A DNA stretch of 64,000 nucleotides, taken from the NCBI GenBank assembly GCA_964510105.1, contig CAZEAI010000008.1, forward strand, positions 6,923 to 70,922. Direction: 5' to 3'. Below, in pieces: positions 12,461-64,000 of this stretch; the stretch's first letter is position 1, and the number at the start of each line of letters is the position of its first letter. This DNA is from an uncultured bacterium. Lineage in GTDB: Bacteria; Latescibacterota; MWCZ01. A model generated the notes under the pieces. That model did not search any database and had not been told where the DNA came from. It worked only from the letters and a program-made list of their open reading frames with translations. The position numbers were made by a program, and so were the translations under genes.

Positions 12461-12677
12461 GTTCGCCTCTCCATGCCGGGGGTCCTGCCGACGGTGAGTT
12501 CCGCCGCACGATAAGCTACCGCGCGAAGTTGGAGTGGGGGTAGGCGGTACGCGCCTGCCCGTGTCGTCGCGAACGCCGTTGGGGTGAACGCGGCGGCTTG
12601 TCATCTTTCAGCTTCAACTTGATGCCGTAGGTCGGGACTGACACGCGGCTCCGTCGCGTCTCTCATGTCGCGGGGAA

Positions 12678-32570: not shown

Positions 32571-32671
32571 TGGTCAGACCGGGCCGTGCGTCGTCGGTCC
32601 AGTCGCATATCGCCGGGCGGCGGGATGGTCCCGTTCATCGCGCCGCCTGGATGCGGATTCAGTGGGCAGCA

Positions 32672-43243: not shown

Positions 43244-43452
43244 CGTTGGCGCCATACCGGCGCCGACGACGGCGAGCTGTCATGCGCACCGGGAGACGGA
43301 GACGCACCGGTCTTTACTACCAGCTATTCCTTAGTATATTACCCCCTGATGTCGATCGCTGAGCGGGATAGTTGTACACGGCCCGCCCGTTCCTAGTGCC
43401 CTCCGTAGGCGGGTGGTCCCGCGCACTGCCGGCGCCGCCCGAGGTGGTCGCA

Positions 43453-46400
43453 GTGGATACTCAACGGCGAGCAGACGACGCAACTCTGGTCGGGCGTTGC
43501 CTCGACGGTGACCGCGAGGCGTTTGCCGGGCTCGTGCAGGCCTACGAGCAGACCGCCCTCGCGACGGCGATGGCGTACGTCGGCAACTCGGACGACGCGG
43601 GAGACGTCACCCAGGACGCCTTCGTCACGGCCTTCACGTCGATCGGCGATCTACGAAACCCGGCGCAGTTCGGGAGCTGGTTCCGACGAATCGTGCAGCG
43701 GCACGCGCTTGAGCGTGTACGCGATGCCGGACGAAGCACCCCTCTCACCGACGAGCACGGCGCCACACCCCCGCCCGCGTCGCCGGATATGCCGCAGACA
43801 TCGTTCTCCGCCGACGTGTCGTCCGCCGTGCAACAGCTTCCGATGGCATACCGCGACATCGTCCTGATGTATTACCTCAACGACTTGTCCTACCGCGGCA
43901 TCGCGGAGATCATGGACCTGCCGGAGTCGACGATACGGAGCCGTCTGCGAACGGCACGGCGAAGGCTGAAAGGCGTCCTGCCCAGACAAGGCCGCAATCG
44001 CGGCGCCGACGACCACGGGCAGATCCGCTCGGCGATTCAGAAGTCGGTAGGCAAGCGCCACTATCGCGACGCTCTCGAACGCCTCCTGTCGGCCGGAATG
44101 GAGCACATACGCGATACGCTCTCGGATGAGGAACAGGAGCTGTTCGGACGGAACGTCGAGACGATCCTCTCGCACGTAACCGGCATCGAGGACGAAAGCC
44201 CGTGCAGAGCGGATTGGGGGGAGGCGCCCGACGTCGAGGGATTCGTCGGGCGCGCGGAGGAACTCGCGACGTTGCGCACGTGGATCGCGGACGAGCAGTC
44301 GCGCCTGATTGCCGTCATCGGTATGGGTGGAATCGGTAAGACAGCACTCGCGGCAAGAGCAGCCAGGATCGTCGCAGGCCAGTTCGAGTGCGTCTTCTGG
44401 CGATCGCTGGTGAACGGACCGCCGCTTTCGAATGTGCTCACTGAGTTGATCGGGCACCTTCTTGGCGAGTTCAGCGTGCCACGCTCCGATCGGATCGACG
44501 AGCAGATCCGACGCGTCATGGAGTACCTGCGGTCCCACCGCTGCCTCATCGTGTTGGATAACGTCGAGGGAATACTGGAGGCCGGCGCCGCCGGTCGCTT
44601 CCGCGAGGGATACGAAGGTTACGGGCAACTGATACGACAGTTCAGCGAGTGCCCTCACCAGAGCACGGCGCTGCTCACCAGCCGTGAGCGGCCGCGCGAT
44701 TTCGCTCTTGTGGAGCGTGTTGACGGAACCGAACTGCACGCCTTCGAGCTGAAAGGCTTGGATGGCGACGCCGCACGGGAGCTTCCGGGCCTGGAGAGCA
44801 TTGCAGCATCGGACGACGACTGGCAGACGCTGGTGGAGCATTTTTCCGGCAATCCGCTCGCTTTGAGGCTGGTGGCGGAGAAGGTGTTGGACCTGTTCGG
44901 GGGAGATCTGTCACACTTCCTCGCGGCCGGACTTCCGCTGTTCGACGACGTGCGCGACATACTCGATCGGCAGTTCGAACGCCTGACGCCGCTTGAGCGT
45001 GACGTGATGTGCTGGCTGGCGATCGTACGGGAGCCGGTAACTCCGGATGAGATCCGCGTACGACTGGTTCCGGCCGTGTCGGCGAGTGAGCTTCTCCAGA
45101 TCATGCACTCCCTCAGTCTGCGAACGCTCGTGGAGCACCGTTCGGGTACGTTCCTTCTGCAGAACGTCATCACCGAGTACGTTACCGACCGAATCGTCGA
45201 ACAGGCGGCCGGCGAAATCGCGGCGGGCCTGGTGACTCTCCTGGATACCCACCCGCTGACGATGGCAACGGCGAGACCCAACGTGAGAGACGCACAGCGG
45301 CGTCTGATACTGTCGCCCGTCGGCCTTCGCGTGGTGAACGAATTCGGCCCGAACGCCGTGGAAGAAGCGCTGAAGGCAACCGTCGATTCGCTTCGTGCCG
45401 GCGACGCGCTCCCGAACGGGTATGCCGCGGGCAACTACTTCGACCTCGTGGCTCATCTCTTCGGCGAGGTGGTCGGCTGGGATTTCTCGCACCTCTCGGT
45501 CCGTCAGGCGGACCTGACCAGTGCACACGTGCACGACACCAGCTTCGCGCACTCCGTGTTCGGCGAATGCGCGCTTCAGCACGCACATGGCAACGTGGAT
45601 TGGGCTGAATTCAGTCCCAGCGGCCGGGAGATAGCGATCTCAGCGTTCGGACGACTGGAAACGCGATCGTTCCCGGGCCTGGAGCCGCTCAGCGCCGATT
45701 GCACGGAGGGTGTACGGTCGGCGACGTACACGACAGACGGTCGCCTCCTCGCCATCCGTCTTGAGCACGCGGAGAGTTGGCCGGAAGCAGCCGATCGCTA
45801 CTCGCCTCGACGGATCGATGGTGGGACCGGTAGCAGATGGCATAACTCTGTGATGGATGTTGCATCTGGAGCGGCCCTGTTGGAATACGATGTGCAGTGG
45901 ATGAATATCGGCTGCCTATGCCCTTCCGGCAGGCTACTCGCCCACGACGACATCGACTTCACCATCAAGGTGCTCAACCTGGAGAACAAGGAGTGCGTCG
46001 CGACGCTGCCGAGCAGCGTAGGCCGCCTCTCTCAGCACGGACTGGCATTCCACCCGGACGGTGAGATGCTGGCAACCTGTGGCTACGACGGATCGGTCAG
46101 GGTGTGGGATGTTCGGTCAGCCGAATGCAAATGGACGTCCGAGCAACAAGGATGTAGCAGAATCGCATTCACCCCGGACGGCGACAAGCTTGCTATCTCC
46201 GATACCCACAGCCATCGGACTCGGTTCATGGACGCCGATTGCGGTACGTGTCGAGGCACCATGGAGGCGGCTCTGCTGTCGTTCCATCCCGACGGCAGAA
46301 CGGTGGCCGGTCACGATTCGGCCAACCGCATCGTGATCTGCGCCGTCGATACCTCCGATCTCGCGGCGACATTCCGAAGCGAAACGGGGATGGTGACGGC

Positions 46401-48279
46401 CGCCTCGTTCAGCCCGGATGGACGGTACTTGTTGGTGGCGGAGGAGCCGGGCCTGCTCCGCGTCTGGGATCTGGAGACGGGGCAAAGCCTGAATTCGTCA
46501 CAGGGAAACCGGCACGCGAACGAGCCGAGGGCCGATATCGACCCAACCGGAAGACTTGTGGCCGTAGGTGAGGAAGCGGGCCAGGTGCATGTCTGGGACG
46601 TATCGGCGTCGCGCGTCGTCACGACACTGCGTGAGCGAGAGGCCCTGCTATCTGCGCACGAGTTCACGCCCTCGGCAAGCTCTCCGTCTGAACGCGACTG
46701 GCTCAACATAGATGAAGAGTGGAGAGTCTACGATGAAGACTCGGAACTATGCATCAACACAGCGGATGGGAGTCTGCGACGACAGACGCACCGAATTGCC
46801 TCGCCTGTACGCGACGTGGTTTTCAGTCCGGACGGATCGCTTGTGTCGGGCGCGGATCCGGCGGACCGGGGATTCAGGGCATGGCACGTGAGCACGGGAG
46901 AGTGCGTTGGCTGGTACAACAGATCGCATGCCGTCCGCTATGTCTGTTTCGCGCCGAATAGCTCGCTCGTCGCCTGTCACACGACGGATGACGAGGCCGA
47001 ATATCCGACAACGATCTGGAATTGTCGTACCGGGCAGCTCGTTCGTGGGCTCCCGTGTCACTCGTGGCATATGGCTTTCACCCCGGACGGCAGAACCTTC
47101 GCGGGAGCGACCTACCGCGACGGGGAATTCGTCATGAACCTGTGGGACGTTTCCTCGGGTGAGCGACGGCTGTCCCTCGAAGCGCGGGAGTGGATAACGT
47201 ATTTCTGGCTCTACAGCGTGACCGGATTCAGCGCGGACGGGAGACTGCTGGGTACGTGTCTGGGCGGCCCGAACTACAGGGGAGCCATCGTGTGGGATAC
47301 GGCTGTAGCTGAGCCGCTGCTGAAGGTGCCCGGCAGCAAATACCTCAGCTTCCTCGAGAACGACCGAGTGTTGGTTCGCGGCGGGATGGAAGGCCAGACG
47401 GTGTCGGTCGTGGACGTCCGAACGGGTGAACAGATGGACTCGTGGAACACCAGTATCACCGGCCCGACCAGAGCATTCAGCTCCGACGGCAGGATGATTG
47501 TCACGGCATCGGAGCATCAGCCGGGTGTATCGGTCTGGAATGTCGACGATGGATCCCACGTGTGCACGATTCCCCGGATTCGTCCGTACGATGGAACGAA
47601 CATCGCGCACGCGGACGGGCTGACGCCTGCCGAAACAGCGACACTGAAACGCCTGGGCGCCATCGAGCAAGAGGTGGGGCTCTCCCCTGCCGAGCCCCAG
47701 TCGCCGCCGCGTTCGTCGCCACGGGACCCTCTCGAACGACGATTCACCGCATGGGCAGGGGGACCGAGGGCGCTCGTGTCGGTCGTCTGCGTCGAAGCGG
47801 CCGATCGAACCATCCTGTCCGACCGGCTTGAGGGTAACCAGCGCGTCGAACGCATGCGCGCCCGGCACGCACAACGGCTGCGGGATCTCACCGGTCGGCA
47901 CCACGGGCTGACAATCTGCGACGACGGCGCGAGCGCTTCCATCGCTTTCCACACACCCACGGAGGCGCTGGAGTTCACGCGAGAGTGCCGTCGAGAGACA
48001 GAAGCGGACGGGATCAGGCTGCTTACCGGCATCCATGTGGAATCGATCAGGATCGGGAGCGAGGACCCCTTCGACCACCTTGCCACACACCTTACCGGGA
48101 TAGTCGAGAAGGCGAATTCGTCCGGGGTCTGGGCGAGCGACGAATACAAGGACCTCCTTGCGAGATTCGGTCCGAACGGCCTGCCGGAGCCGGTGTGGAT
48201 CATGCACCCCAACTGCCAGCTCAAAGGGCTTCCGGGGAAGCACAAGCTATGGTCGCTGACCGACGACGCGCCGGCCTGA
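43453..48279 (+). CDS. ECF sigma-70 factor fused to an NB-ARC/STAND NTPase, WD40 repeats and a C-terminal class-III-cyclase-homology-like domain
   Basis: Sigma-70 region 2 (AFAGLVQAYEQTALATAMAYVGNSDDAGDVTQDAFVTAF) and region 4 (LPMAYRDIVLMYYLNDLSYRGIAEIMDLPESTIRSRLRTARRRLKG). Then FVGRAEELATLRTW...IAVIGMGGIGKTALA...CLIVLDNVE...GNPLALRLV, the NB-ARC P-loop/GxP motifs. Then at least 10 WD40 units (FHPDGEMLATCGYDGSVRVWDV...). Then a roughly 170-aa C-terminal domain matching the cyclase pattern (...IRLLTGIHVESIRIG...VWIMHPNCQLKGLPGKHKLWSL). This is one uninterrupted frame. The start is set at the GTG at 43453 after AGGTGG; the exact start is uncertain (43372-43453). Confidence 0.65.
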   Translation: MDTQRRADDATLVGRCLDGDREAFAGLVQAYEQTALATAMAYVGNSDDAGDVTQDAFVTAFTSIGDLRNPAQFGSWFRRIVQRHALERVRDAGRSTPLTDEHGATPPPASPDMPQTSFSADVSSAVQQLPMAYRDIVLMYYLNDLSYRGIAEIMDLPESTIRSRLRTARRRLKGVLPRQGRNRGADDHGQIRSAIQKSVGKRHYRDALERLLSAGMEHIRDTLSDEEQELFGRNVETILSHVTGIEDESPCRADWGEAPDVEGFVGRAEELATLRTWIADEQSRLIAVIGMGGIGKTALAARAARIVAGQFECVFWRSLVNGPPLSNVLTELIGHLLGEFSVPRSDRIDEQIRRVMEYLRSHRCLIVLDNVEGILEAGAAGRFREGYEGYGQLIRQFSECPHQSTALLTSRERPRDFALVERVDGTELHAFELKGLDGDAARELPGLESIAASDDDWQTLVEHFSGNPLALRLVAEKVLDLFGGDLSHFLAAGLPLFDDVRDILDRQFERLTPLERDVMCWLAIVREPVTPDEIRVRLVPAVSASELLQIMHSLSLRTLVEHRSGTFLLQNVITEYVTDRIVEQAAGEIAAGLVTLLDTHPLTMATARPNVRDAQRRLILSPVGLRVVNEFGPNAVEEALKATVDSLRAGDALPNGYAAGNYFDLVAHLFGEVVGWDFSHLSVRQADLTSAHVHDTSFAHSVFGECALQHAHGNVDWAEFSPSGREIAISAFGRLETRSFPGLEPLSADCTEGVRSATYTTDGRLLAIRLEHAESWPEAADRYSPRRIDGGTGSRWHNSVMDVASGAALLEYDVQWMNIGCLCPSGRLLAHDDIDFTIKVLNLENKECVATLPSSVGRLSQHGLAFHPDGEMLATCGYDGSVRVWDVRSAECKWTSEQQGCSRIAFTPDGDKLAISDTHSHRTRFMDADCGTCRGTMEAALLSFHPDGRTVAGHDSANRIVICAVDTSDLAATFRSETGMVTAASFSPDGRYLLVAEEPGLLRVWDLETGQSLNSSQGNRHANEPRADIDPTGRLVAVGEEAGQVHVWDVSASRVVTTLREREALLSAHEFTPSASSPSERDWLNIDEEWRVYDEDSELCINTADGSLRRQTHRIASPVRDVVFSPDGSLVSGADPADRGFRAWHVSTGECVGWYNRSHAVRYVCFAPNSSLVACHTTDDEAEYPTTIWNCRTGQLVRGLPCHSWHMAFTPDGRTFAGATYRDGEFVMNLWDVSSGERRLSLEAREWITYFWLYSVTGFSADGRLLGTCLGGPNYRGAIVWDTAVAEPLLKVPGSKYLSFLENDRVLVRGGMEGQTVSVVDVRTGEQMDSWNTSITGPTRAFSSDGRMIVTASEHQPGVSVWNVDDGSHVCTIPRIRPYDGTNIAHADGLTPAETATLKRLGAIEQEVGLSPAEPQSPPRSSPRDPLERRFTAWAGGPRALVSVVCVEAADRTILSDRLEGNQRVERMRARHAQRLRDLTGRHHGLTICDDGASASIAFHTPTEALEFTRECRRETEADGIRLLTGIHVESIRIGSEDPFDHLATHLTGIVEKANSSGVWASDEYKDLLARFGPNGLPEPVWIMHPNCQLKGLPGKHKLWSLTDDAPA

Positions 48280-52052: not shown

Positions 52053-52167
52053 GCAGTTCGCTCTGCGAACTGCAAAACGAATGCGAGCGCCACGAGCGTT
52101 CGCCGCGCGGGCAGCCCCGCTCCACCCGTTCCTCCTCGGGGCTGCCTGCCATGGAAAGGAGTTCATC
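52053..52167 (+). promoter_or_regulatory. conserved intergenic element, copy 1: terminator-like hairpin, conserved spacer, then leader hairpin, upstream of a T9SS cargo gene
   Basis: GCAGTTCGC-tct-GCGAACTGC hairpin immediately after the stop codon. A conserved ACGAAxGCGAGCGCCACGxGCGTTCGCC spacer follows. A second hairpin GGCAGCCCCG-n17-CGGGGCTGCC sits 20 nt before the RBS. Confidence 0.5.
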
Positions 52168-53517
52168 ATGAACATGCGCCGCACCATCCTTCTGTGTCTG
52201 GGGATGCTGCTCTGCGCGGGAGTCCGAATCGCACACTCAGCCCCCGCCATCGCACCCGACTGGATACAAAGCGGCCATTCGAGCTATGTGTTATGTGTGG
52301 CGATAGACTCGGTTGGGAATACCATCGTTACGGGGAGCGCCGACCGCACGATTAAGGTGTGGGACCTGTCCGGCGGCAGGTTGCTGCGGACGCTCCCCGT
52401 TCCCGACAGTGGCGACGAGGGTCACACGGCCGGCGTACAAAGCGTGGCGATCAGCCCTGACGGGAGCACGATCGTCTCGGGAGACTGGGACCACACTACG
52501 AAGGTGTGGAACCTGTCCGACGGCAGGCTGCTACGCACGCTCATCGGCGGCAGAGGCGATGCGTGGAGCGTAGCTTTCGCCCCGGATGGTAACACGGTTG
52601 TCTCGGGCGGCTTCGATGCCACGATCAAGGTGTGGCGGCTGTCCGACGGCACCGTGCTGCGCATACTCAGAGGCCACACGAGCTACGTGACCAGCGTGGC
52701 AGTCAACGGGAATACTGTCGTCTCGGGGAGTGCCGATCGTACGGTCAGAGTGTGGGATCTGTCCGACGGCACGCTGTTGCGGACCCTCACTGCTTCAAGC
52801 TGCGCGGGCGCCGGTCATACCGCTTGCGTGGCCAGTGTGGCGATCAGCCCCGATGGGGACAGGATCGTCTCGGGGAGCGCCGACGGCACGATCAAGGTAT
52901 GGAATCCGTCCGACGGCACGCTGCTGCGAACACTCCCAGTCCCGGGCGGCGGCGACGCGGCACACACGGGTGGTGTCCGAAGCGTGGCGATCAGCCCCGA
53001 CGGGAACAGGATCGCGTCGGGAGGTCTCGACGCCACGATCAAGCTGTGGAGTCTAACCGAAGGCTCGCTGGAGAAGACCCTCGCCGCCCATGGGAACACG
53101 GTGTGGAGCGTGGCGATTAGCTCCGATGGCGGATCCATCGTGTCAGGTGGAGGAGACGCACGGGTGATCCGATGGGGTGTGTATCCGCCGCTCAAGACGC
53201 TGACACCGCCTAGTGCGGTAGAAGGGAATCCACGGCAAGCTCGTGCGACCTTGTCACAGAACGTCCCGAACCCGTTTAACCCATCGACGTCCATCCCGTA
53301 CTCGCTTGCGTCGGACGGCGTTGTGCGGCTCGAGTTGTACGACGCGATCGGCCGGCCGGTGCGGACGTTGCTGGCCGACTACCGCCACGCGGGAGAGCAC
53401 TCCGTCGTGTGGGACGGTCGCGACGACGCGGGTCGCGCGGTAGCGAGTGGCGTCTACGTTGTACGGATGGTGGCAAGCGGCTTCGTCACAGCGCGGAAGG
53501 TGACACTGCTGCGATAG
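52168..53517 (+). CDS. secreted WD40-repeat protein with a T9SS (Por) C-terminal sorting domain
   Basis: Signal peptide MNMRRTILLCLGMLLCAGVRIAHS. About 8 WD40 units (TIKVWDLSDGTLLRTL...). C-terminal NVPNPFNPSTSIPYSLASDGVVRLELYDAIGRPVRTL... T9SS CTD. Confidence 0.7.
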   Translation: MNMRRTILLCLGMLLCAGVRIAHSAPAIAPDWIQSGHSSYVLCVAIDSVGNTIVTGSADRTIKVWDLSGGRLLRTLPVPDSGDEGHTAGVQSVAISPDGSTIVSGDWDHTTKVWNLSDGRLLRTLIGGRGDAWSVAFAPDGNTVVSGGFDATIKVWRLSDGTVLRILRGHTSYVTSVAVNGNTVVSGSADRTVRVWDLSDGTLLRTLTASSCAGAGHTACVASVAISPDGDRIVSGSADGTIKVWNPSDGTLLRTLPVPGGGDAAHTGGVRSVAISPDGNRIASGGLDATIKLWSLTEGSLEKTLAAHGNTVWSVAISSDGGSIVSGGGDARVIRWGVYPPLKTLTPPSAVEGNPRQARATLSQNVPNPFNPSTSIPYSLASDGVVRLELYDAIGRPVRTLLADYRHAGEHSVVWDGRDDAGRAVASGVYVVRMVASGFVTARKVTLLR

Positions 53518-53645: not shown

Positions 53646-56045
53646 ATGATACGCACACTGACAACGCTCACAGCCACGCTGTTCGCGCTCGGCCCGCTCG
53701 CTGGGGCAAATACGGACGTCAGCGGCGAAATCACGACTACCACGTGGACCGCCGCAATGGGCCCCTATCAAGTCACCGACACGATCACCGTCCCGACGGG
53801 CAACACGCTCACCATCGAGCCAAGCGTGGATGTGCTCTTCGACGCCGACGTGCCGTTCGTCGTCGAGGGCGCGTTGGATGCAGTCGGCACCGAAGTCGAC
53901 AGCATCCGGTTCATCGCGGGCACCGCCGACGAGTGGGGCGGCATCCGCTTCAACGGCGGCGACTCAAGCACGATCCACTACGCGCGCGTCAGCGATGCAT
54001 TCACCCACGCGCCCTCTCCGTTTGTTGGTGGCGAAGGAGGCGGCATCCACCTGTTGAGCTCATCGCTCGGTCTGGCACACTCTGTCGTAAGCGGCAACAC
54101 AGTCGAGGGCTACGGAGGTGGTCTGTTCGCCGACAGCGCCACCGTCACACTCGACTCATGCGCGATCACGGGCAACGCGGCGAAGAAGGCCATGGCTGGC
54201 GGCGACGGCGGTGGCGTTTATGCGGTCGAGTCGACCGTTTCGTTAACTGGATGCGCGGTGTCTCAGGACAGCGCCGCTGGCGCTGGAGGCGGCGTACACG
54301 GCCGGAACTCGACGCTGTCTCTCGAGGCGTGCGACATCCAAGACAACGCCAGCCTGTCCACTGGCGGAGGGCTCCACCTCGTTGGGGGCACCGTCGGTAT
54401 GACGGTATGCAGTGTCTCGAACAACGACGCCGGAGGCACAGGAGGTGGGCTATACACCACTGGGGTCGACATGGTCCTGGCTGACTGCGACGTATCGGGT
54501 AACGCATCAGGCGCGTCTGGGGGCGGGCTGTGCGTTGCGGGAAGCGGAAGCGGTCTCACCCTGACCGACTGCACTGTGTCAGCGAACGTGGCTGGTCTCA
54601 ACGGCGGCGGAATGGTTCTCAACGGGGTTACTGCGACGCTCGCAGGCTGTGCCGTCGATGGCAACTCGGCAGGTACGGCGCCGGTCGCAGGCGGCGGCTC
54701 CGGCAATGGCGGGGGATTTTCCGCAAGGGGTGGGGCGATCACGCTCTACAACTCCACGGTGAACCGCAACACGGCAGGCAAATGGGGTGGGGGGTTCTAC
54801 ACCGGCGGCACGGCGGTCACTATGGGTGCCTGCGAGCTCCGGGGAAATGCGTCCTGGGGAGGGGCCCCGACCGATTTCTTCGGCGGCTCGACCGTTACGA
54901 TGACGAACTGCCTCGTGGCCGGGAATACTGCCTTTCTGCCAAGCGCAGGCCTGGATTTCCATGATGCCTCCGCGACGCTGGTGAATTGCACCGTCGTCGA
55001 CAATCGGTCGCTGGGCGAACCCGGTTGTACCCCGCCGGACAGCGTATGGGGAATCATAGGCGCCGCCGCCAGCAGCCCGGACCAGACGATCACACTCATC
55101 AACTCCATCATCTGGGGACACAGTGGGGACCACGGTCTGGACTACTGGCTATGCGGAGCAGAAACGGGCGTCTGCCCGGGGATCTGCATCCCAGGACCTT
55201 TCCCGCCTGGCGCGCCGACGACTGCGACCTACTGCGCCGCCGGGGCCGTCAATGTGGAAGGGTGGTGGTCGAGCGTGGGGAACGTCAACGCCGACCCGAT
55301 GTTTGTCGACACGATCGCGTACGCGCTGCTGCCGAGCTCACCGTGCATCGACACGGGGTCACATTACATCCTCGATGAGGACGGCTCCCCGTCGGACATG
55401 GGGTACACCGGCGGAGGGCGGTACGGGCGGTGCCAGGTGTCACTCGTGCCGGACACGCTGTACCGCGACTCCACTGACTTCGTTCGCGTCAGGAACGTCG
55501 GCGACGCGCCTCTCGGCGTGTTCGAGCCGGACCTTCCTGATTCGTTTGTGACGGACATGGTCTTCCCGCAAGCCGTTGAGCCGGACAGCACGCTCTACAT
55601 TCCGGTGACGTATACCCAGCGCGGCTACCATGAGAAGACCGCCGTCATCCATACTTCTGATCCGTGGACACCGGATACGGTGGTGCTGCTGAAGGGCAAG
55701 TGGCCCGTGGCGATAGCAGCAATCGCTCGCCCACCGGCGTTCGCGCTGTCGCCGAACGTCCCGAATCCGTTCAACCCGGCGACGCGCATCCCATATGCGC
55801 TCGCGTCGGACGGGGATGTGCGGCTCGTGCTGTACAACACCCTCGGCCAGCGCGTGCGTACGGTCGTGGACGAATATCGAAGCGCGGGCGAACACTCCGT
55901 CGTGTGGAATGGGCGCGACGACGCGGATCGGCCCGCGGCGAGCGGGGTGTACATCGTGCGGCTGACTCACACTGGGGCGAATCGGAACGATTCGCGGACG
56001 AACTCGAACGCAGTGAGAGTTCGCAGGGTGACGCTGCTGCGATAG
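53646..56045 (+). CDS. secreted right-handed parallel beta-helix (Pmp-like) repeat protein with a T9SS C-terminal sorting domain
   Basis: Signal peptide MIRTLTTLTATLFALGPLAGA. Dozens of GGG[LV]x / NxAxxGGG repeats of about 22-25 aa. C-terminal NVPNPFNPATRIPYALASDGDVRLVLYNTLGQRVRTV... CTD. Confidence 0.65.
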   Translation: MIRTLTTLTATLFALGPLAGANTDVSGEITTTTWTAAMGPYQVTDTITVPTGNTLTIEPSVDVLFDADVPFVVEGALDAVGTEVDSIRFIAGTADEWGGIRFNGGDSSTIHYARVSDAFTHAPSPFVGGEGGGIHLLSSSLGLAHSVVSGNTVEGYGGGLFADSATVTLDSCAITGNAAKKAMAGGDGGGVYAVESTVSLTGCAVSQDSAAGAGGGVHGRNSTLSLEACDIQDNASLSTGGGLHLVGGTVGMTVCSVSNNDAGGTGGGLYTTGVDMVLADCDVSGNASGASGGGLCVAGSGSGLTLTDCTVSANVAGLNGGGMVLNGVTATLAGCAVDGNSAGTAPVAGGGSGNGGGFSARGGAITLYNSTVNRNTAGKWGGGFYTGGTAVTMGACELRGNASWGGAPTDFFGGSTVTMTNCLVAGNTAFLPSAGLDFHDASATLVNCTVVDNRSLGEPGCTPPDSVWGIIGAAASSPDQTITLINSIIWGHSGDHGLDYWLCGAETGVCPGICIPGPFPPGAPTTATYCAAGAVNVEGWWSSVGNVNADPMFVDTIAYALLPSSPCIDTGSHYILDEDGSPSDMGYTGGGRYGRCQVSLVPDTLYRDSTDFVRVRNVGDAPLGVFEPDLPDSFVTDMVFPQAVEPDSTLYIPVTYTQRGYHEKTAVIHTSDPWTPDTVVLLKGKWPVAIAAIARPPAFALSPNVPNPFNPATRIPYALASDGDVRLVLYNTLGQRVRTVVDEYRSAGEHSVVWNGRDDADRPAASGVYIVRLTHTGANRNDSRTNSNAVRVRRVTLLR

Positions 56046-57344: not shown

Positions 57345-57505
57345 CGAGTGCGGCACCGTCGGGAGGATTCGCGTAGGCACGTTTGTCATGAACGATTCTG
57401 ACGCAGCCGGGGCGCGCCAGCGATGTTGGCGCGCTGGACTCCATCCGACCAGACGAGCGAATGTGCAACCGTCACGTCGGAGCGTCCTGTCACGGGGAAG
57501 TCTTC

Positions 57506-58606
57506 ATGGATGCGTCGATGATGTCGAAGTTCCTGCCAGGGATGGATCTGTGCGAAGCGTTCTACCATGAGGTCGTGTCCCCAATCATCGAGCAACGGTT
57601 CCCGGGCTTGGTGTACTCCGCTGCAAAGCTGCACCACGGATCGGATGTTCTGGGATTCGATACACCGCAGTCGATGGACCACGACTGGGGGCCGTCCAGG
57701 ATCGACCTCTTCCTGCGAGAGGTGGACTGCCACCGCCTGTCTGAAGAGGTGGGATCGGTTCTCTCGTCTGAGCTCCCGCATGTGTTCCGCGGGTTGCCGA
57801 CGGATTTCAGATCGGACGATGAGCACGCTGGGATCGTTCTTGTGGCTGAAGGACCTGTATTGCACAGGATCAACTGCACTACCACAGACCGATTCTTTCA
57901 TCGCTTCCTCGGATTCAGCCCGCTGGATCCCATCGGGGAGACGGACTGGCTGACCGTCTCTCCGCACTACCTTCGGATGATCGCATCGGGTAAGGTATTT
58001 CATGACGGATTGGGCGAGCTTCGGGCAGCACAGGATGCGCTGCGCTGGTACCCCAGTGATGTCTGGCTCTACCTCCTGTCGTGCCAATGGGGAAGAATCG
58101 ATCAGGAAGAGGCGTTCATGGCGCGGTGCGGCGACGTCGGTGATGAGCTTGGTTCCCGCCTCGTTGCATCTCGCATGGTGGAAGAGCTCATGAAGCTCTG
58201 CTTCCTGATGGAACGCCAGTATTGGACTTTCAGCAAGTGGTTCGGCACAGCTTTCTCGCGGCTGGAATGCGCCGCGACGTTGACCCCCGTGTTTGACGCG
58301 GTGCTCAGCAGCACGGGATGGAAGGAGCGAGAAAAGCACCTCTCGGAGGCGTATGTCGATGTGGGTATTATGCACAACACTCTTGGAATAACCACCTTCA
58401 TCGAACCGAACGTATCGCAGTTCTACGATCGGCCTTATCAAGTGCCACACGCTGAGCGGTACTGCTTCGCGCTGCGCGACTGCATCCAATCGGACACGGT
58501 GTTGTCCTGGCCGAAATACGTAGGCGGCGTCGGGCAGTTCGTGCACTCCACCGATGTTCTGTGCAGCACGGTGCACTGCAAGAGGATCGGAGCGATCTAT
58601 GAATGA
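57506..58606 (+). CDS. hypothetical protein
   Basis: 367 aa in a clean frame, convergent with cysNC. No family confidently recognised. The start is chosen at MDASMMSKF. Confidence 0.35.
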   Translation: MDASMMSKFLPGMDLCEAFYHEVVSPIIEQRFPGLVYSAAKLHHGSDVLGFDTPQSMDHDWGPSRIDLFLREVDCHRLSEEVGSVLSSELPHVFRGLPTDFRSDDEHAGIVLVAEGPVLHRINCTTTDRFFHRFLGFSPLDPIGETDWLTVSPHYLRMIASGKVFHDGLGELRAAQDALRWYPSDVWLYLLSCQWGRIDQEEAFMARCGDVGDELGSRLVASRMVEELMKLCFLMERQYWTFSKWFGTAFSRLECAATLTPVFDAVLSSTGWKEREKHLSEAYVDVGIMHNTLGITTFIEPNVSQFYDRPYQVPHAERYCFALRDCIQSDTVLSWPKYVGGVGQFVHSTDVLCSTVHCKRIGAIYE

Positions 58607-58777
58607 AGAACCGATCAAGTAAGGTCGCCCGAACGCGTGCGGCATCGTCGCCGTCTGCGCCCCGACCGGACCAGGGGCGAGCGGTCGCGCGGATATCTCG
58701 CGGTGTGCACCGTGGAAGTGCGGCGTAGGACCGATGCCGCGTACGCTGGTCGCTCTCGTCGTAGCGGAGCACGCAGT

Positions 58778-60646
58778 TCACCGCGCGCCGATCACGCCAC
58801 GCTGTCGGAGCAGGCCGAGGAGCCGATCCACGGCCTGGTCGACAGTGAGCTGGGTGGTGGAAACCACTATGTCGGGATCGCCAGGCTCTTCGTAGGGGGC
58901 GGAGATGCCGGTGAATTGCTTGATCTCGCCGCTGCGCGCTTTCTTGTACAAGCCTTTCGGGTCGCGTCTTTCGCATTCGTCCAGATCGCACTCGACGAAT
59001 ACCTCTATGAAGGCATCGCCTATGATCTCTCGGGCGCTATCCCGGAACGTTCTACTGGGAGAGATGAAGGACGCGATGACCAGCATGCCTGCGTCGTTGA
59101 ACAGATGCGCAGTTTCAGCGACACGACGAATGTTCTCTTCTCGATCGGCGTCTGAGAATCCGAGATCCCGGTTGAGGCCATGTCGAACGTTGTCGCCGTC
59201 GAGAACATAGCAGGCCTGCCCCATGTTCATCAGGCGCAACTCAAGCGCGTGAGCGATGGTCGATTTCCCGGAACCGCTGAGGCCGGTGAGCCACAACGTG
59301 GCCGGTCCCTGCCTGAAGAACCGCTGACGTTGATCTGTTGAAACCAGGCTCTGCGTGCGCGTGATATTCGCACTGATGACGCCGCCCTCATCGGGGAGTC
59401 GGTCGATGATCATGCCGCACGCAACCGTACGGTTGCTTTCAGGATCTATCAGAATGAAGGAGCCGGTGCTGCGATTGCGTTGATAGCTCTCACAGGGGAT
59501 CGGCTGGAATAGCCCCAGTGAAACGCGCCCGATCTCGTTTGTCGCCAAGGTGCCGGCATCTGCACGGTGGAGCGTGTCGGGATCGACTTTGTAGGTGATC
59601 TTCTCGACAGACGTGCGCAGGATGGCGGTGCCATGTTTGAGACGGTAGTCCACACTGATATCCAAAGGCGCTTCGTCCATCCACACAAGCATGGCTTCGA
59701 TCTCTCGACGGATCTGCGGTTGGTTGCCCGGATGTACCAACATATCGCCGCGGCTCAGGTCGATCTCGTCGGCCAGGCATACGGTGACTGCGTGCGGAGG
59801 GAAGGCGTAGTCGCTCTCACCATCGGCGGTGAGAATGCGCTCGACCGTCGTGTTCCCACCGGAAGGCAGGGCCAGAACCTCATCGCCCACGCGAAGGACA
59901 CCGGACTCGATACTACCACAGTAGCCACGAAAGCCTGAGTTCGGTCGGTTCACGAACTGGATGGGCATGCGAAAGTCGATCAGGTTACGGTCGCCGGCTA
60001 TTTCGACGGTCTCCAGATGCGGAAGGAGAGCGCTGCCCTCATACCACGGCATCTTCTCGCTGCGTGTTACGACATTGTCGCCGCAGAGCGCGCTGATCGG
60101 CATGAACGTGAGTCCGGGCAGGTCTAGCTTGGCAGCGAAATCCGCGTATTCGCCGTGCAGATCATTGTAGACGTCCTCGGAGTAGTCGACGATGTCCATC
60201 TTGTTGACGGCAACTACCACGTGGGCTGTACCCATCAGGGAAGCGATGAAACCATGGCGTTTCGACTGCGTGGTGATGCCGTTCTTGGCATCAAGCAGGA
60301 TGATCGCGAGGCCTGCGCCGGACGCCCCCGTGACCATGTTGCGGGTGTACTGCTCATGTCCCGGCGTGTCGGCGATGATGAAGCGACGTCGCGGCGTGGA
60401 GAAGTAGCGATAGGCGACGTCGATCGTGATGCCCTGCTCACGTTCGGCTTTCAGTCCGTCCGTCAGCAATGCCAGATCCGTATCGCGGCTCAGCTTCCTG
60501 GAGGCCTCGCCAACCGCATGCAGATGGTCCTCGTAGACGGAGTTCGTCTCGTAGAGCAGGCGTCCGATCAGGGTCGATTTGCCGTCGTCAACGCTTCCAG
60601 CCGTGCAGAAACGCAGGAGTTCGGTGCTCTGTGCGGGGTGGTTCAT
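58778..60646 (-). CDS. cysNC: bifunctional sulfate adenylyltransferase subunit 1 / adenylylsulfate kinase (CysN-CysC fusion)
   Basis: N-terminal GTPase fold (CTAGSVDDGKSTLIGRLL, DTPGHEQY, NKMD). C-terminal APS-kinase (LWLTGLSGSGKSTIA...GDNVRHGLNRDLGFS...KARSGEIKQFTGISAPYEEP). Confidence 0.85.
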   Translation of the reverse strand: MNHPAQSTELLRFCTAGSVDDGKSTLIGRLLYETNSVYEDHLHAVGEASRKLSRDTDLALLTDGLKAEREQGITIDVAYRYFSTPRRRFIIADTPGHEQYTRNMVTGASGAGLAIILLDAKNGITTQSKRHGFIASLMGTAHVVVAVNKMDIVDYSEDVYNDLHGEYADFAAKLDLPGLTFMPISALCGDNVVTRSEKMPWYEGSALLPHLETVEIAGDRNLIDFRMPIQFVNRPNSGFRGYCGSIESGVLRVGDEVLALPSGGNTTVERILTADGESDYAFPPHAVTVCLADEIDLSRGDMLVHPGNQPQIRREIEAMLVWMDEAPLDISVDYRLKHGTAILRTSVEKITYKVDPDTLHRADAGTLATNEIGRVSLGLFQPIPCESYQRNRSTGSFILIDPESNRTVACGMIIDRLPDEGGVISANITRTQSLVSTDQRQRFFRQGPATLWLTGLSGSGKSTIAHALELRLMNMGQACYVLDGDNVRHGLNRDLGFSDADREENIRRVAETAHLFNDAGMLVIASFISPSRTFRDSAREIIGDAFIEVFVECDLDECERRDPKGLYKKARSGEIKQFTGISAPYEEPGDPDIVVSTTQLTVDQAVDRLLGLLRQRGVIGAR

Positions 60647-60740
60647 GGCTGCTCAGTCCTACGTTCAACTCGTGCGGGAATGGATCGCGGTGGCCTGTTT
60701 TTGTACCGCGGTTCAGGCTCTGGGCTTTCGGCCGAGCAGC

Positions 60741-61628
60741 TTAGAAGTAGCCCTCGCGCTTCTTCTGCTCCATGGAAGCATCCTGATCGTGGTCGATGAC
60801 GCGTGTGCTGCGCTCCGATTGGCGAAACTCTTTCATCTCTTCGATGATCTCTTCAGTGCTGGTCGCGGTCGAGCGCACCGCCCCGGTACAAGGACTGCAT
60901 CCCAGAGTGCGGAACCGGCACATCACAGTCTGGCTATCCTCATCGGGATCGGCAGGAATCAGTTGGCCGTTCCTCTCGATCACCTGACGTTCCGTGGCGT
61001 AGTACATCGGTACAATCGGAATGTCCTCCTGCTGGATGTATTCCCAGACATCCAGCTCGGTCCAGTTCGACAGGGGAAACACCCGGATTGATTCGCCTGG
61101 ATTGAGCTTGGGATTGAAGAGGCGCCAGATCTCCGGGCGCTGGTTCTTCGGATCCCACTGGCCATACTCATCCCGGAAGGAACAGATGCGCTCCTTAGCG
61201 CGGGAACGCTCTTCATCGCGACGGGCGCCGCCGAAGGCAGCGTCGTAGCCGCCCTGACGCAGGGCAGCAAGCAGTGCCTGTGTCTTCAGAAGCTCGCAGC
61301 AGCGGACCGTGCCCTGCTTCGAGGGATGGGTGCCCTTGCCAATCGCATCCTCGTTCCGGTAGACCCGCAGGTCGGCTCCGATCTCCTTGCAGAAGCGGTC
61401 ACGAAACTCGACCATCTCCGGAAACTTGACGCCCGTATCTACATGCAGTAGCGGGAACGGTATCTTGCCGGGAGAGAAGGCCTTCTGGGCGAGCCGCACC
61501 ATCGTGGACGAGTCTTTCCCGATCGAGTAGAGCATCACGGGTTTCTCATACTCCGCGAAGACTTCCCGGATGATGTGGATACTCTCGGCTTCCAGGTCTT
61601 TGAGCGCGCCTATGCGATAGCTTTCCAT
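60741..61628 (-). CDS. cysD: sulfate adenylyltransferase subunit 2
   Basis: [47 protein letters not shown], the PAPS-reductase-fold CysD signature. Confidence 0.85.
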
Positions 61629-61715
61629 GCGTCCTGTTCTCTCCAGCACTGACCTGGGTGGCCGCCTGTAATCGTTCCTGATCGGGTTCGTTCCTGGTCG
61701 GATTCAGGCTCCCGC

Positions 61716-63179
61716 CTAATTCAGAGCGACCTGTTTCGCACCGCGATAGAGGTTGTTCGCTTCGTCAAGAAGAGATTGAGGAACGATGCCGGTATCCACT
61801 TCCCGCAGCCTGACCGGCTGGATCGTAGTCGCGGCTGAAAGCAATCTGTCAGGATGCTGAGCTCCAATCACATCGGCCAACGCTTGTAGTCCGTGCTCCG
61901 GATCCTCACACAGTCCGTCGTAATGGAGGAAATGCAGATTGCCTACACTGTTCGCCAACAGATGTCGGTAGCCAGCTACCCAGTACTCAAGCCAGAAAGC
62001 CAACTTTCCGGCGTCCTTCGACGTACGTCCATCCAACCAGCCATCGAAATCGATGGGTCGCAGGTTCTCGCCGAAGTCGAAGTGTCCGATCGCTCGCATG
62101 TATTCCGATGCGAATGGGTCATCTTTCTGGATACTGAGGAAATTCAGATGTTGCTTCAGCAATGAAGCTGCGTGCTGAAGCGGCTCCCGAAATGGGACGA
62201 GGATCTCCGAAGTCGGAAAATGCCTATGCAGCCAGCCGATACGCGCGGTGTTGGGGTTGTTCTTCGACACATATCGTGCTGTTGCTACATCCCGACCTCG
62301 GCGCAACAGGACGATCTTGCGCATGTGATCGCGAAAAAACTCTTCGAACTCTTCATGCGCCTCGTTCTGCCAGACTACGATGCGATCATCCCTGTAATGT
62401 GACCGCCAGAAGGTCTTCCACAGCACCTCCTCCAGCGCCTCGGGGCTATCGACATTCATGAGCATGCCGTCACCGTGAGCGCGTTCCCGCAGCGCGCTCT
62501 CGCGTCTGAAGACCGCAGAGAACTGGTTCCACAGACAGGGCGTGAGTACGAATGGCATATCGCGGTAACTGTGAGATGCGAGATCCGGCATCTGTGCGCA
62601 ACACTCGAGTAGCAGAGTCGTACCCGCGCGGGGCAACGCTGTGATGAAGACTGGACGATCGATCTTGCATGCGGCAAGCTGGCGGGCAAATAGCTGGCTC
62701 TCGATGTCGGCGAGCGGGATCTGTGCTACGTAGGTCTTGAACGCAATCCGGTGCACTAGCCGATCTATGGGCGAGTAATCGCTCTTTTTGTCGCCGATCT
62801 TCGGGGAGTTCGAAACCAGTGACAGAGCGAGAAAGGCGAATGCGCTGCTCGCGATGAGGAACGCCGGAGATACCGCGACATCCATGACCGACTGGAGAGA
62901 AACGAGGTCAAGACGATCACCGATCCATAGTACTCCTACTGGTAGCAGGAGCGCCGCTGCTCCACCAACGGCCAAGACGAAGGACAACCCGAACAACCGT
63001 TTCGCATCGGCCTGGACCGCGCTCTCTTTCGCGTCGTCATCCAAGGTTGTGCTGCGAATCACCTCAAGCGAACGACGTGCGATCGGGATGACCTCTCTGC
63101 TCTTGTCAATCAGTCCGAAAGCTCGAATGAGAGCGAAGAAGCCTACGACAAGGAAAGTCGCGACAATCCACTCGATCAT
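61716..63179 (-). CDS. membrane-anchored sulfotransferase-family protein
   Basis: N-terminal roughly 130 aa with 3-4 TM helices. Then ITALPRAGTTLLLE (5'-PSB, the PAPS phosphate-binding loop of sulfotransferases) and a downstream RxxxxxxS-like 3'-PB region. Confidence 0.55.
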   Translation of the reverse strand: MIEWIVATFLVVGFFALIRAFGLIDKSREVIPIARRSLEVIRSTTLDDDAKESAVQADAKRLFGLSFVLAVGGAAALLLPVGVLWIGDRLDLVSLQSVMDVAVSPAFLIASSAFAFLALSLVSNSPKIGDKKSDYSPIDRLVHRIAFKTYVAQIPLADIESQLFARQLAACKIDRPVFITALPRAGTTLLLECCAQMPDLASHSYRDMPFVLTPCLWNQFSAVFRRESALRERAHGDGMLMNVDSPEALEEVLWKTFWRSHYRDDRIVVWQNEAHEEFEEFFRDHMRKIVLLRRGRDVATARYVSKNNPNTARIGWLHRHFPTSEILVPFREPLQHAASLLKQHLNFLSIQKDDPFASEYMRAIGHFDFGENLRPIDFDGWLDGRTSKDAGKLAFWLEYWVAGYRHLLANSVGNLHFLHYDGLCEDPEHGLQALADVIGAQHPDRLLSAATTIQPVRLREVDTGIVPQSLLDEANNLYRGAKQVALN

Positions 63180-63415
63180 TCGGAGGGTTCCTCGGTCTCG
63201 CTATGACTGGACTTCTTCAGCATTCGTATCAGCCGCCTGACCGGATACCACACGAAACCGAACAAAGCGAGAACGATGGCCGCAACCACGGCGAGAAACG
63301 CACCAATGGCAGACAACCCAGCGCCCGGTCCGATATAGGCCATGGCAGACACTGGCGTCAGGCAGGCCAGGATGATGGCTCCGATTGCGCGCTCAGGCAC
63401 TCGTTGGCAGGCCAT
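63176..63415 (-). CDS. small integral membrane protein (2 TM), hypothetical
   Basis: 79 aa with two hydrophobic helices. The stop overlaps the sulfotransferase start (ATGA), which suggests translational coupling. Confidence 0.35.
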   Translation of the reverse strand: MACQRVPERAIGAIILACLTPVSAMAYIGPGAGLSAIGAFLAVVAAIVLALFGFVWYPVRRLIRMLKKSSHSETEEPSE

Positions 63416-63434
63416 GAATTCCCTCCGATCGTCG

Positions 63435-64000
63435 CTATCGACGCAGGAACCGAGAGTAGTCTACCGGCAGCCCTTGCGCCTGCGATACGAGTCCGACTAT
63501 TCCACGGTCGATGTAGTTGACGTACTCCCAGACGATCTCGCCTTCCCGGGTAACCTCAAACACTCTGCCGTAGTGTGCATCGGTGAGGAGTAGATTACCG
63601 TTCGGCAGCCACTGATGCGCTCCTTGAGCGCCAGTGAAGAACGGATTGTCCGCCCCGCCCTCGTAGTACACCCGCGTGCTGTCGCCGGGTGCCGATATGA
63701 TGAGTATACGACTGTGAAGGACACCGTCGTCCGACGGATTTCCCGGGTTGTTGTCGAAAACGGAGAAAGTGTCTCCATCGATGAAATCCGGATCGTGCTG
63801 CCTTGTGAAGATGCCAGTGGAGATGTACTTGATACTCTCGGTGTCTTCGTTGAAAACAAATATGGTACTAGGGTTGCGCAGCGAAACCAGCACGTCGCCT
63901 CTCCCAAAGAAACCTTCCTCCAACGCGTCGGGGAACGGCTCGGCGTCGTTCATGTGCAGTCGGTCGTCGAGGAGTTCGAAGTAGGGCTCCGCAGGCTGCT
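63435..64000 (-). CDS. arylsulfotransferase (ASST)-like beta-propeller protein, C-terminal part (5' end beyond the window)
   Basis: HQWLPNGNLLLTDAHYGRVFEVTREGEIVWEY resembles conserved ASST-family blade motifs. The gene is truncated by the window edge. Confidence 0.4.
   Translation of the reverse strand, partial: QPAEPYFELLDDRLHMNDAEPFPDALEEGFFGRGDVLVSLRNPSTIFVFNEDTESIKYISTGIFTRQHDPDFIDGDTFSVFDNNPGNPSDDGVLHSRILIISAPGDSTRVYYEGGADNPFFTGAQGAHQWLPNGNLLLTDAHYGRVFEVTREGEIVWEYVNYIDRGIVGLVSQAQGLPVDYSRFLRR

Follow-up and report, generated by a model that had tools for sequence, protein, structure and literature searches.

What might a bacterium do with two sulfotransferases of different kinds encoded side by side? 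This question is raised by the end of a 64,000-nucleotide stretch of contig CAZEAI010000008.1, from an uncultured bacterium of the Latescibacterota (the window), where the gene of a membrane-anchored sulfotransferase (ST) of the type that uses 3'-phosphoadenosine 5'-phosphosulfate (PAPS) lies close to that of a beta-propeller protein resembling the PAPS-independent arylsulfate sulfotransferases (ASSTs), with a small membrane protein encoded between the two. Sulfation outside the cytoplasmic membrane faces a general problem, as PAPS arises in the cytoplasm and does not pass through that membrane. Bacterial ASST-type enzymes have decades of study behind them and are in wide use as biocatalysts. 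The natural substrates and the physiological role of the bacterial ones are poorly understood, according to a 2026 review (PMC13426309). We found that the ASST-like protein, the small protein and the membrane ST form a conserved three-gene unit in several phyla, of which the window holds one instance, here with its own PAPS supply. As judged from the protein sequences, this widespread and uncharacterised sulfation cassette probably serves to hand sulfate from the inside of the cell to targets beyond the membrane.

The last 5.2 kb of the window contain, on the minus strand, five co-directional open reading frames (ORFs), with the same coordinates as in an earlier note on this DNA (lengths in amino acids, aa):

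58778-60646, minus strand: cysNC, a fused cysN-cysC gene (622 aa; NF004035, PF01583)
60741-61649, minus strand: cysD (302 aa; NF003587, PF01507)
61716-63179, minus strand: gene of the PAPS-type ST (487 aa; Pfam Sulfotransfer_3, PF13469)
63176-63415, minus strand: gene of the small, hydrophobic membrane protein (79 aa), whose stop overlaps the ST start
63435-64000, minus strand: C-terminal 187 aa of the ASST-like beta-propeller (PF14269), the gene continuing past the window end

From the ASST-like gene to cysNC, the successive spacings are 19 nucleotides (nt), a 4-nt overlap, 66 nt and 94 nt, the overlap (ATGA) being formed by the TGA stop of the 79-aa gene and the ATG of the ST gene. No terminator-like site was found on the minus strand between the five genes, and because of this and the short spacing, a single operon is plausible. 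The gene calls and family assignments of the earlier note, as well as the ATGA coupling and the 5'-phosphosulfate-binding (5'-PSB) motif that it had pointed out, were all found to be correct.

To describe the cassette across genomes, hidden Markov models (HMMs) of the three proteins were scanned over about 98 loci from genomes and metagenomes, among which some near-duplicate contigs remain. The small gene abutted the ST gene, directly upstream of it, in 77 of the 80 loci with enough upstream sequence. The ASST-like gene was directly upstream on the same strand in 39 of 54 loci and present anywhere in the locus in 50 of them, some of these 50 having the alternative order small gene-ST-ASST. When loci were inspected gene by gene, a homologue (70-90 aa) of the window's small gene preceded the ST gene in all, and an Arylsulfotran_2 gene (390-460 aa) preceded the small gene in most. 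The outer neighbours differed completely between loci, and all-against-all clustering of neighbour ORFs (55 loci of at least 6 kb) yielded no fourth conserved family, the next real family being present in 5 loci. The earlier note had treated the ASST-like gene and the small protein as side matters; this does not stand, as both belong to a conserved unit with the ST.

The carriers include Planctomycetota, Verrucomicrobiota (Opitutales, Ca. Moanabacter), Cyanobacteriota and many metagenomes, and the cassette is found in hundreds of genomes and metagenomes and in at least three phyla. A search of open-access papers found none describing it. Among the cyanobacteria are Pleurocapsa sp. PCC 7319, Myxosarcina sp. 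GI1, Hyella patelloides LEGE 07179 and Okeania hirsuta, and since cultured cyanobacteria carry the cassette, the question of its function is open to experiment. In one locus (L082, 7728-10577, plus strand) a single 949-aa ORF consists of the ST, a basic linker, a transmembrane (TM) segment and the ASST-like domain, the latter with THHS, HxN, SxR and QHD motifs; a small gene precedes it at 7771-8004. Near 10577 the ASST part of this fusion is interrupted by a stop or frameshift, and it goes on in a different frame (10584-10901), which may reflect a sequencing error or a decaying gene.

Two loci, L002 (1-21455) and L022 (1-21470), have the ST and the small gene inside polysaccharide-type clusters with Wzy, Wzz/GNVR, GT2/GT4, DegT aminotransferase and acetyltransferase genes; L002 also encodes three B12-binding radical SAM enzymes, and its ASST-like gene, a divergent paralogue, lies 7 kb downstream. 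In L032 (19-8519), ST-cysD-cysNC are followed by genes of an NAD-epimerase, an NTP-transferase/GT2 fusion and an unannotated 508-aa ORF. In all, only 2-3 related loci lie in polysaccharide-synthesis clusters.

The identity of the ST was assessed by profile and fold searches. The protein matched PF13469 with 55.3 bits (cutoff 27; E 1.4e-14), above the gathering score, while a search of NCBIfam matched no model. An AlphaFold2 model built with 120 homologues (predicted local distance difference test score, pLDDT, 90.1) was compared with the PDB using Foldseek, which returned Stf1 (2zq5), Stf9 (2z6v), TPST1/2 and the CurM ST at probability 1.0, a value also given to the entries 3ap1, 5wri and 4gbm; the best PDB folds were all PAPS-dependent sulfotransferases. 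Together these searches supported the sulfotransferase fold of 61716-63179, which the earlier note had set as a test of its proposal. By sequence, the family profile reached TPST1 with an E value of 0.0016, TPST1/2 being the closest sequence matches among solved structures, and Stf1 (2zq5) marginally (E 0.05). The ST search yielded 1557 proteins at E <= 1e-3, and identity within the family was 52-67% over the full length, including the N-terminal TM domain. This N-terminus has three hydrophobic helices. The mean number of Lys plus Arg in the family is 7.9 in the first loop and 0.8 in the second, a charge distribution that therefore points to an N-out orientation with the catalytic domain in the cytoplasm, where PAPS is. 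The following features were located:

62811-63179, minus strand: three-TM domain (residues 1-123), predicted to comprise three membrane helices and a cytoplasmic helical loop
61719-62672, minus strand: catalytic domain, from about residue 137 onward
62610-62636, minus strand: 5'-PSB motif LPRAGTTLL (residues 182-190), aligned with GVPRSGTTL of TPST1
62256-62267, minus strand: motif SKNN containing K306, paired by HMMER with NKDP of TPST1
62163-62189, minus strand: candidate 3'-phosphate-binding (3'-PB) motif R331-x7-S339 (FREPLQHAAS), paired by HMMER with VRDGRASVHS of TPST1

Residues P183, R184, G186, T187 and T188 of the 5'-PSB motif are invariant in the 120 homologues, as are R331 and K306 in the homologue alignment, where S339 is conserved in at least 90%. 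The segments aligned with TPST1 at the 3'-PB and K306 are weak in score, the evidence there being at the level of motifs, and the functional roles are those that we take the aligned TPST residues to have. The alignment with TPST led us to reject RYVSKNN as the 3'-PB motif: it places the Arg/Ser pair at R331/S339 and the conserved Lys within RYVSKNN. Opposite the catalytic Glu pair of TPST, the ST has an invariant His-Cys, and the candidate catalytic bases are the invariant H203 (aligned beside the TPST Glu pair), D207 and H235. These profile and model data support the assignment of the 487-aa protein as a PAPS-dependent sulfotransferase, with a catalytic domain predicted to be held at the inner face of the membrane by its three TM helices.

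The ASST-like fragment of the window matched PF14269 (Arylsulfotran_2) with 80 bits (cutoff 27; E 2.7e-22). It is 55-61% identical to full-length cassette partners, which match both PF14269 and PF05935; the full-length relatives have 390-460 aa, with one N-terminal TM anchor, then a conserved FPY motif, then the propeller. As the window holds only the C-terminal 187 aa, the fold, the anchor and most motifs were studied on full-length partners. A search with the 187-aa fragment gave only fragments of at most 323 aa, and a second search used an alignment of full-length proteins derived from the loci. To examine the fold, we modelled the homologue P0277 (61% identity to the window fragment; model pLDDT 91.5). 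Its first matches were Cpz4 (9kf6/9kf4; E 5.8e-16 for 9kf6), then E. coli ASST (4p04; E 5.2e-13); non-enzymatic propellers were also matched, with E values of about 1e-9 to 1e-10.

E. coli ASST was not listed when the cassette profile was run against the PDB with hmmsearch, and hhalign and HMMER aligned only the THHS/THES blade of the two. Because the sequence profile alone fell short, the link to E. coli ASST was drawn from the fold search and the order of the motifs. For this comparison we used the enzyme of E. coli CFT073, with the active-site residues listed in PMC13426309 (literature residue number = precursor number minus 27):

E. coli ASST H252, TH(252)ES: THHS in the cassette family, aligned by hhalign and HMMER
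E. coli ASST H356/N358, H(356)VN(358)S: LHLND in the cassette family, by pattern only, the MAFFT placement being ambiguous
E. coli ASST R374, SSR(374)H: SLRN in the cassette family, which HMMER aligns to SGRN (S-x-R-N) of Cpz4 9kf6
E. coli ASST H436, TQH(436)T...TIFDNG: RQHDP...SVFDNN in the cassette family, aligned by HMMER with WQHD of Cpz4 9kf6 and by MAFFT with TQH(436)T of E. coli ASST
E. coli ASST T501, FYSPIT(501): PFYT in the cassette family, by pattern only

The cassette motifs THHS, LHLND, SLRN, QHD and FYT thus come in the same order as in E. coli ASST and are invariant or nearly so. In P0277 they correspond to H172, H264, N266, R290, H317 and T371, all invariant or nearly so in 120 homologues, in which the His of QHD is invariant. 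The window fragment contains LHMND, SLRN, RQHDPDF and PFFT, the first three of which were assigned as follows:

63945-63959, minus strand: LHMND, candidate equivalent of His356/Asn358 of E. coli ASST
63873-63884, minus strand: SLRN, candidate equivalent of Arg374
63783-63803, minus strand: RQHDPDF, whose His is the candidate sulfuryl-accepting residue, equivalent of His436

Concerning the topology of the ASST-like protein, a plain count of Lys plus Arg around the anchor was indecisive (1.7 versus 2.1), a bias appearing once acidic residues were counted: the mean net charge is then +2.3 on the N flank versus +0.8 on the C flank, and the N flank exceeds the C flank in 91 of 113 proteins. This bias and the L082 fusion lead us to predict that the N-terminus is inside and the propeller outside the membrane. 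Sequence and model thus support a propeller at the outer face of the membrane that would act as a PAPS-independent enzyme of the Cpz4/ASST type, taking the sulfuryl group onto a His before handing it to an acceptor. Extra ASST-like genes were seen in L012, L014, L017 and L076, and several genomes have two or three paralogues near the cassette; these fall into two divergence classes (HMM scores of about 650-780 and 210-340), all with an N-terminal anchor.

The 79-aa protein had no significant family match in Pfam or NCBIfam. When its family was searched in a library of 1.84 billion proteins, 2171 clusters (at 50% identity) were found with E <= 1e-3, of which 414 had E <= 1e-10. Two long matches, P0424 and P0511, were considered as fusions and look like gene-call artefacts. 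Two copies occur in L094, one on each side of the ASST gene, and a further homologue is found in L032 (8703-8945). The family pattern starts with a basic N-terminus, a hydrophobic stretch, helix breakers (often P-x-P), A-x-A and Y-[VI]-G-P-G-x-G, and continues with a 25-residue hydrophobic helix rich in small residues, G-F-x-W-Y-P-x-[KR]-R and a polybasic tail. Similarly, the window protein has a signal-peptide-like N-terminus ending in A-M-A, then Y-I-G-P-G-A-G, one TM helix, W-Y-P and a polybasic tail:

63317-63337, minus strand: motif Y-I-G-P-G-A-G, whose Tyr is the predicted mature N-terminus, on the outer face of the membrane

In 72 unique sequences, this Tyr and the G-P-G are invariant. 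Position -1, just before the Tyr, is Ala in 65 of the 72 (Ser in 3, Gly in 2, Pro in 1) and position -3 is Ala or Val in 61, while the inner-face Tyr of WYP is replaced by Phe in 8. From the A-x-A pattern we infer a Sec signal peptide with a signal peptidase I cleavage site. The mature protein is predicted to be a single-pass protein of about 53 aa, with its N-terminal Tyr outside and its basic tail in the cytoplasm. Its translation is coupled to that of the ST, and we consider it most likely to be an integral subunit of the complex.

The cysNC product matched NF004035 (bifunctional CysN/APS kinase; APS, adenosine 5'-phosphosulfate) with 894 bits (cutoff 715), Pfam GTP_EFTU and APS_kinase (PF01583, E 2.4e-67), and TIGR00455 with 245 bits; its APS kinase domain is intact, with both the P-loop GLSGSGKST and the LDGDNVR motif. 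The cysD product, the small subunit of sulfate adenylyltransferase, matched NF003587 with 448 bits, as well as PF01507; its gene has an alternative ATG start at 61628. The two parts of cysNC are:

59408-60619, minus strand: CysN part (GTPase subunit of ATP sulfurylase)
58862-59302, minus strand: APS kinase part

Strong homology thus indicates that CysD and CysN-CysC turn sulfate into PAPS in the cytoplasm, and the earlier note's idea of a PAPS supply beside the membrane-anchored ST holds up. Among the related loci, cysD-cysNC is a rare add-on rather than part of the conserved unit. It was found beside the cassette in about 3 of roughly 98 loci, and about 95% have no sulfate-activation gene nearby. 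L032 repeats the window's order ST-cysD-cysNC, its ST being only 59% identical to that of the window, and in L061 and L062 an APS kinase gene is directly downstream of the ST gene.

How could these proteins work together? We give about even odds to the proposal, in our view the most economical one, that the five genes form one sulfation unit, in which a conserved three-protein membrane module would carry out a two-step, trans-membrane sulfuryl transfer. CysD and CysN-CysC would activate sulfate to PAPS in the cytoplasm, as the cassette's own PAPS supply in the window; the inner ST would spend PAPS on charging a carrier, phenolic or enolic, at the membrane; and this aryl sulfate would be the donor for the outer ASST-like enzyme, which would move the sulfuryl group onto its His and then to an extracytoplasmic acceptor. 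Cytoplasmic PAPS would thereby pay for sulfation beyond the cytoplasmic membrane. PAPS synthesis, the PAPS-type fold of the ST and the ASST-type fold with its predicted catalytic His are well supported by homology and models; the coupling of the two enzymes in series and the inside/outside arrangement we infer.

The notion that the two enzymes act in series comes from their near-obligate gene linkage, the ST-TM-ASST fusion and the precedent of caprazamycin biosynthesis. There, a type III polyketide synthase (PKS) makes a triketide pyrone, which Cpz8 sulfates with PAPS, and the ASST-type Cpz4 then uses the ester as donor (PMC6731281; also PMC4257720, with reference to Tang et al. 2013). Cpz4 is the one ASST-type enzyme whose role has been solved, receiving its sulfate from a carrier charged by a PAPS enzyme. 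Because the ASST-like gene, the small gene and the ST gene are conserved together across phyla, the ASST-like protein and the PAPS enzyme most likely serve a single pathway as two of its steps, rather than having unrelated sulfation activities. The cassette ties together a PAPS enzyme and an ASST-type enzyme whose predicted places are on opposite sides of the membrane, in one instance by fusion, and so offers a testable candidate route for activated sulfate to the envelope or the environment.

Several observations weigh against this two-step proposal. Four of the 54 loci have no ASST-like gene within the available flank, and some of the additional ASST-like paralogues stand without a small gene or an ST that would belong to them. 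The neighbour clustering of 55 loci showed neither a conserved carrier-making enzyme (type III PKS) nor a conserved transporter, so that nothing in the cassette would account for the crossing of the membrane. Cpz8 came only at rank 35 (E 0.011) among the fold matches of the ST; the two are not orthologues, and the analogy is functional only. In the window, the ASST-like gene is cut by the window end, its N-terminus and the equivalent of His252 lying outside. The topology of the ASST-like protein is drawn from a charge bias and a single fusion, and 22 of 113 anchors do not have this bias. Finally, cysD-cysNC is rare beside the cassette (about 3 of about 98 loci) and could also serve ordinary sulfate assimilation.

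The carrier of the two-step proposal might be borne by a protein. The invariant Tyr of the small protein, whose predicted place is at the N-terminus on the outer face, could serve the ASST-like enzyme as a tethered aryl group. Several of the ASST substrates Leu-enkephalin, kyotorphin and dermorphin start with Tyr. All three are among the tyrosine-containing peptides that ASSTs are reported to sulfate (PMC13426309). We nevertheless consider it doubtful that cytoplasmic PAPS is used to sulfate this Tyr, or a phenol in the bundle of TM helices of the ST, the small protein and the ASST anchor, for presentation outside to the ASST-like enzyme as its physiological aryl-sulfate donor. Such a relay, if true, would be the first known case of bacteria exporting activated sulfate through the cytoplasmic membrane, and it would identify a natural donor for an enzyme of the ASST family.

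Among the alternatives to the two-step proposal, the one that survives best, though we find it unlikely, is that there is no relay. The inner ST would then sulfate a lipid or lipid-linked glycan with PAPS at the cytoplasmic face, and the outer ASST-like enzyme would, after flipping of the product, only move or add sulfate among acceptors outside the cytoplasm, possibly from environmental aryl sulfates. This is essentially the sulfated polysaccharide or glycolipid suggested in the earlier note. The surroundings of the cassette in L002 and L022 (Wzy, Wzz, glycosyltransferase and aminotransferase genes) fit it, as do the epimerase and NTP-transferase/GT2 genes that follow ST-cysD-cysNC in L032. 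It is also in line with the top fold matches of the ST, the mycobacterial Stf-type enzymes, which act on envelope lipids. In most loci and in the window, however, the neighbours are unrelated housekeeping or glycan-degrading genes, and no glycan-synthesis family is conserved beside the cassette in the 55 loci that were clustered. Furthermore, the absence of a relay would leave unexplained both the near-obligatory small protein and the ST-TM-ASST fusion.

Another explanation is modelled on RaxX and RaxST: the small protein would itself be the substrate of the TPST-like ST, with CysD/CysNC providing the PAPS, and become a sulfotyrosine-tipped membrane peptide, from which the ASST-like enzyme would edit, remove or re-add sulfate. 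TPST1/2 are indeed the solved structures closest to the ST in sequence, TPSTs are among its top folds, the small protein has an invariant Tyr and is translationally coupled to the ST, and RaxST likewise draws its PAPS from the raxP/raxQ products (PMC6637879). What makes this explanation improbable in our view is the predicted place of the invariant Tyr, which comes after a signal-peptidase-like site and would lie outside, away from the cytoplasmic ST. The inner-face Tyr of WYP is Phe in 8 of 72 sequences. Nor are there acidic residues around the Tyr, a double-glycine leader or a conserved peptidase-containing exporter nearby (cf. PMC6637879).

Similarly improbable, we think, is that cysD-cysNC is an ordinary assimilatory operon lying beside the cassette by chance, the cassette then drawing on the general PAPS pool. 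This would agree with the absence of nearby sulfate-activation genes from about 95% of the related loci and with the fact that CysN-CysC fusions are known from sulfate-assimilating organisms too. Against it, the genes are on the same strand as the cassette, with gaps of 66 and 94 nt and no terminator-like site in between. The order ST-cysD-cysNC recurs in L032 in spite of an ST only 59% identical, an APS kinase gene abuts the ST gene in L061, and the APS kinase domain is intact, its product PAPS being the cofactor of the ST.

Least credible of all is that the ASST-like propeller is a non-catalytic binding or scaffold domain, the PAPS enzyme alone transferring sulfate, since, although beta-propellers are common binding modules, many non-enzymatic ones were returned by Foldseek and the profile does not reach E. 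coli ASST by sequence alone, the top folds are two solved ASST-type enzymes, ahead by 3 to 6 orders of magnitude, and the candidate equivalents of the ASST active-site residues vary little or not at all among 120 homologues.

In the remainder of the window, the neighbours of the sulfation genes are glycan-degrading enzymes rather than biosynthetic ones, together with BNR, secreted and large WD40 proteins. The ORFs scanned in the other 58 kb of the window, several large ones of which have no Pfam match, include no sulfur-assimilation (cysH, sir), sulfatase or glycan-synthesis genes, and the neighbourhood therefore does not reveal the acceptor. The main genes observed are:

4701-5792, minus strand: BNR sialidase-like protein
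9809-12604, minus strand: GH116 protein
16265-19699, plus strand: lambda-carrageenase-like propeller with FG-GAP repeats
29146-30657, plus strand: GH43/32-like protein
32329-34683, plus strand: GHL6/fucosidase-like protein
35108-39985 and 52081-53517, both plus strand: further WD40-rich ORFs, one of them of 1625 aa with C-terminal fn3 and purple-acid-phosphatase-N-like repeats
40019-41527 and 53646-56045: ORFs ending in an FlgD_ig domain
43372-48279, plus strand: 1635-aa protein with ECF sigma-70 regions 2 and 4 (residues 54-200), NB-ARC (residues 307-398) and many WD40 repeats
57461-58606, plus strand: DUF4037 protein (E 7e-30), convergent with cysNC

The fusion of a sigma factor to a STAND-type NTPase at 43372-48279 is an unusual architecture, and WD40 proteins are unusually dense in the window. 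The DUF4037 gene is kept beside cysNC in the identical-sequence contigs L001 and L105, and the 419-aa ORF on the strand opposite to it (57386-58645) is a shadow ORF due to high GC content. Contigs identical in sequence to the sulfation locus come from marine oxygen-deficient water-column metagenomes. The GC fraction of the sulfation genes (0.56-0.60) is slightly lower than that of the rest of the window (0.63-0.65) and of the region at 50-57 kb (about 0.65); this is compatible with horizontal acquisition.

How does the cassette compare with known systems? As in mycobacteria (Stf enzymes with CysNC, for sulfolipid-1 and sulfomenaquinone) and rhizobia (NodPQ/NodH), CysD/CysNC, dedicated to this use or shared with others, would supply PAPS for the sulfation of an envelope or secreted product, and Stf1 and Stf9 are the top fold matches of the ST, although its sequence similarity to Stf1 (2zq5) is marginal (E 0.05). 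Stf and NodH enzymes are, however, soluble and act directly on the final acceptor, and their systems have neither a second enzyme of the ASST type nor a small membrane subunit.

With the ASST of uropathogenic E. coli (assT-dsbL-dsbI; PDB 3ELQ), the cassette protein shares the six-bladed propeller and the order of candidate active-site residues, including the sulfuryl-accepting His. Both would be extracytoplasmic, as is known for the E. coli enzyme (PMC13426309) and predicted for the cassette protein. The two differ in that identity is only about 12%, that the cassette protein lacks the N-terminal beta-sandwich (390-460 aa versus 598 aa) and has a signal anchor instead of a cleaved signal peptide, and that its partners are an ST and a small membrane protein instead of DsbL and DsbI.

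The likeness to TPST and to RaxST (raxX-raxSTAB with raxPQ) lies in the Sulfotransfer_3 fold and the PAPS-binding motifs. As with RaxX, a small Tyr-bearing product is encoded beside the ST and, as with RaxP and RaxQ, CysD and a fused CysN-CysC serve as PAPS source (PMC6637879). Unlike TPST and RaxST, the cassette ST has a three-TM N-terminal domain and a 170-aa extension, and the catalytic Glu of TPST aligns with His/Cys. The cassette small protein is a Sec-type membrane protein and not, like RaxX, a secreted double-glycine peptide; no exporter of the RaxA/RaxB type is conserved near the cassette, which has an ASST-like partner instead.

The Cpz6/Cpz8/Cpz4 system of Streptomyces sp. MK730-62F2 resembles the cassette in that a PAPS-dependent ST and an ASST-type ST are encoded together, the Cpz pair acting via an aryl/enol sulfate. 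Cpz4 (9kf4/9kf6) is the best structural match of the cassette ASST, with S-x-R-N, QHD, SVFDN and LPNGN as common motifs. In contrast, the cassette has no conserved type III PKS or other carrier-making enzyme (in 55 loci, and likewise in the window unit), and its PAPS enzyme is TPST/Stf-like, Cpz8 (9kf2) ranking 35th with an E value of 0.011. Unlike the Cpz enzymes, both cassette enzymes are TM-anchored, the ASST-like domain being predicted outside the membrane. Furthermore, the cassette adds, in place of the PKS, a near-obligatory, Tyr-tipped membrane protein of 55-80 aa, and it occurs outside antibiotic clusters, spread over several phyla.

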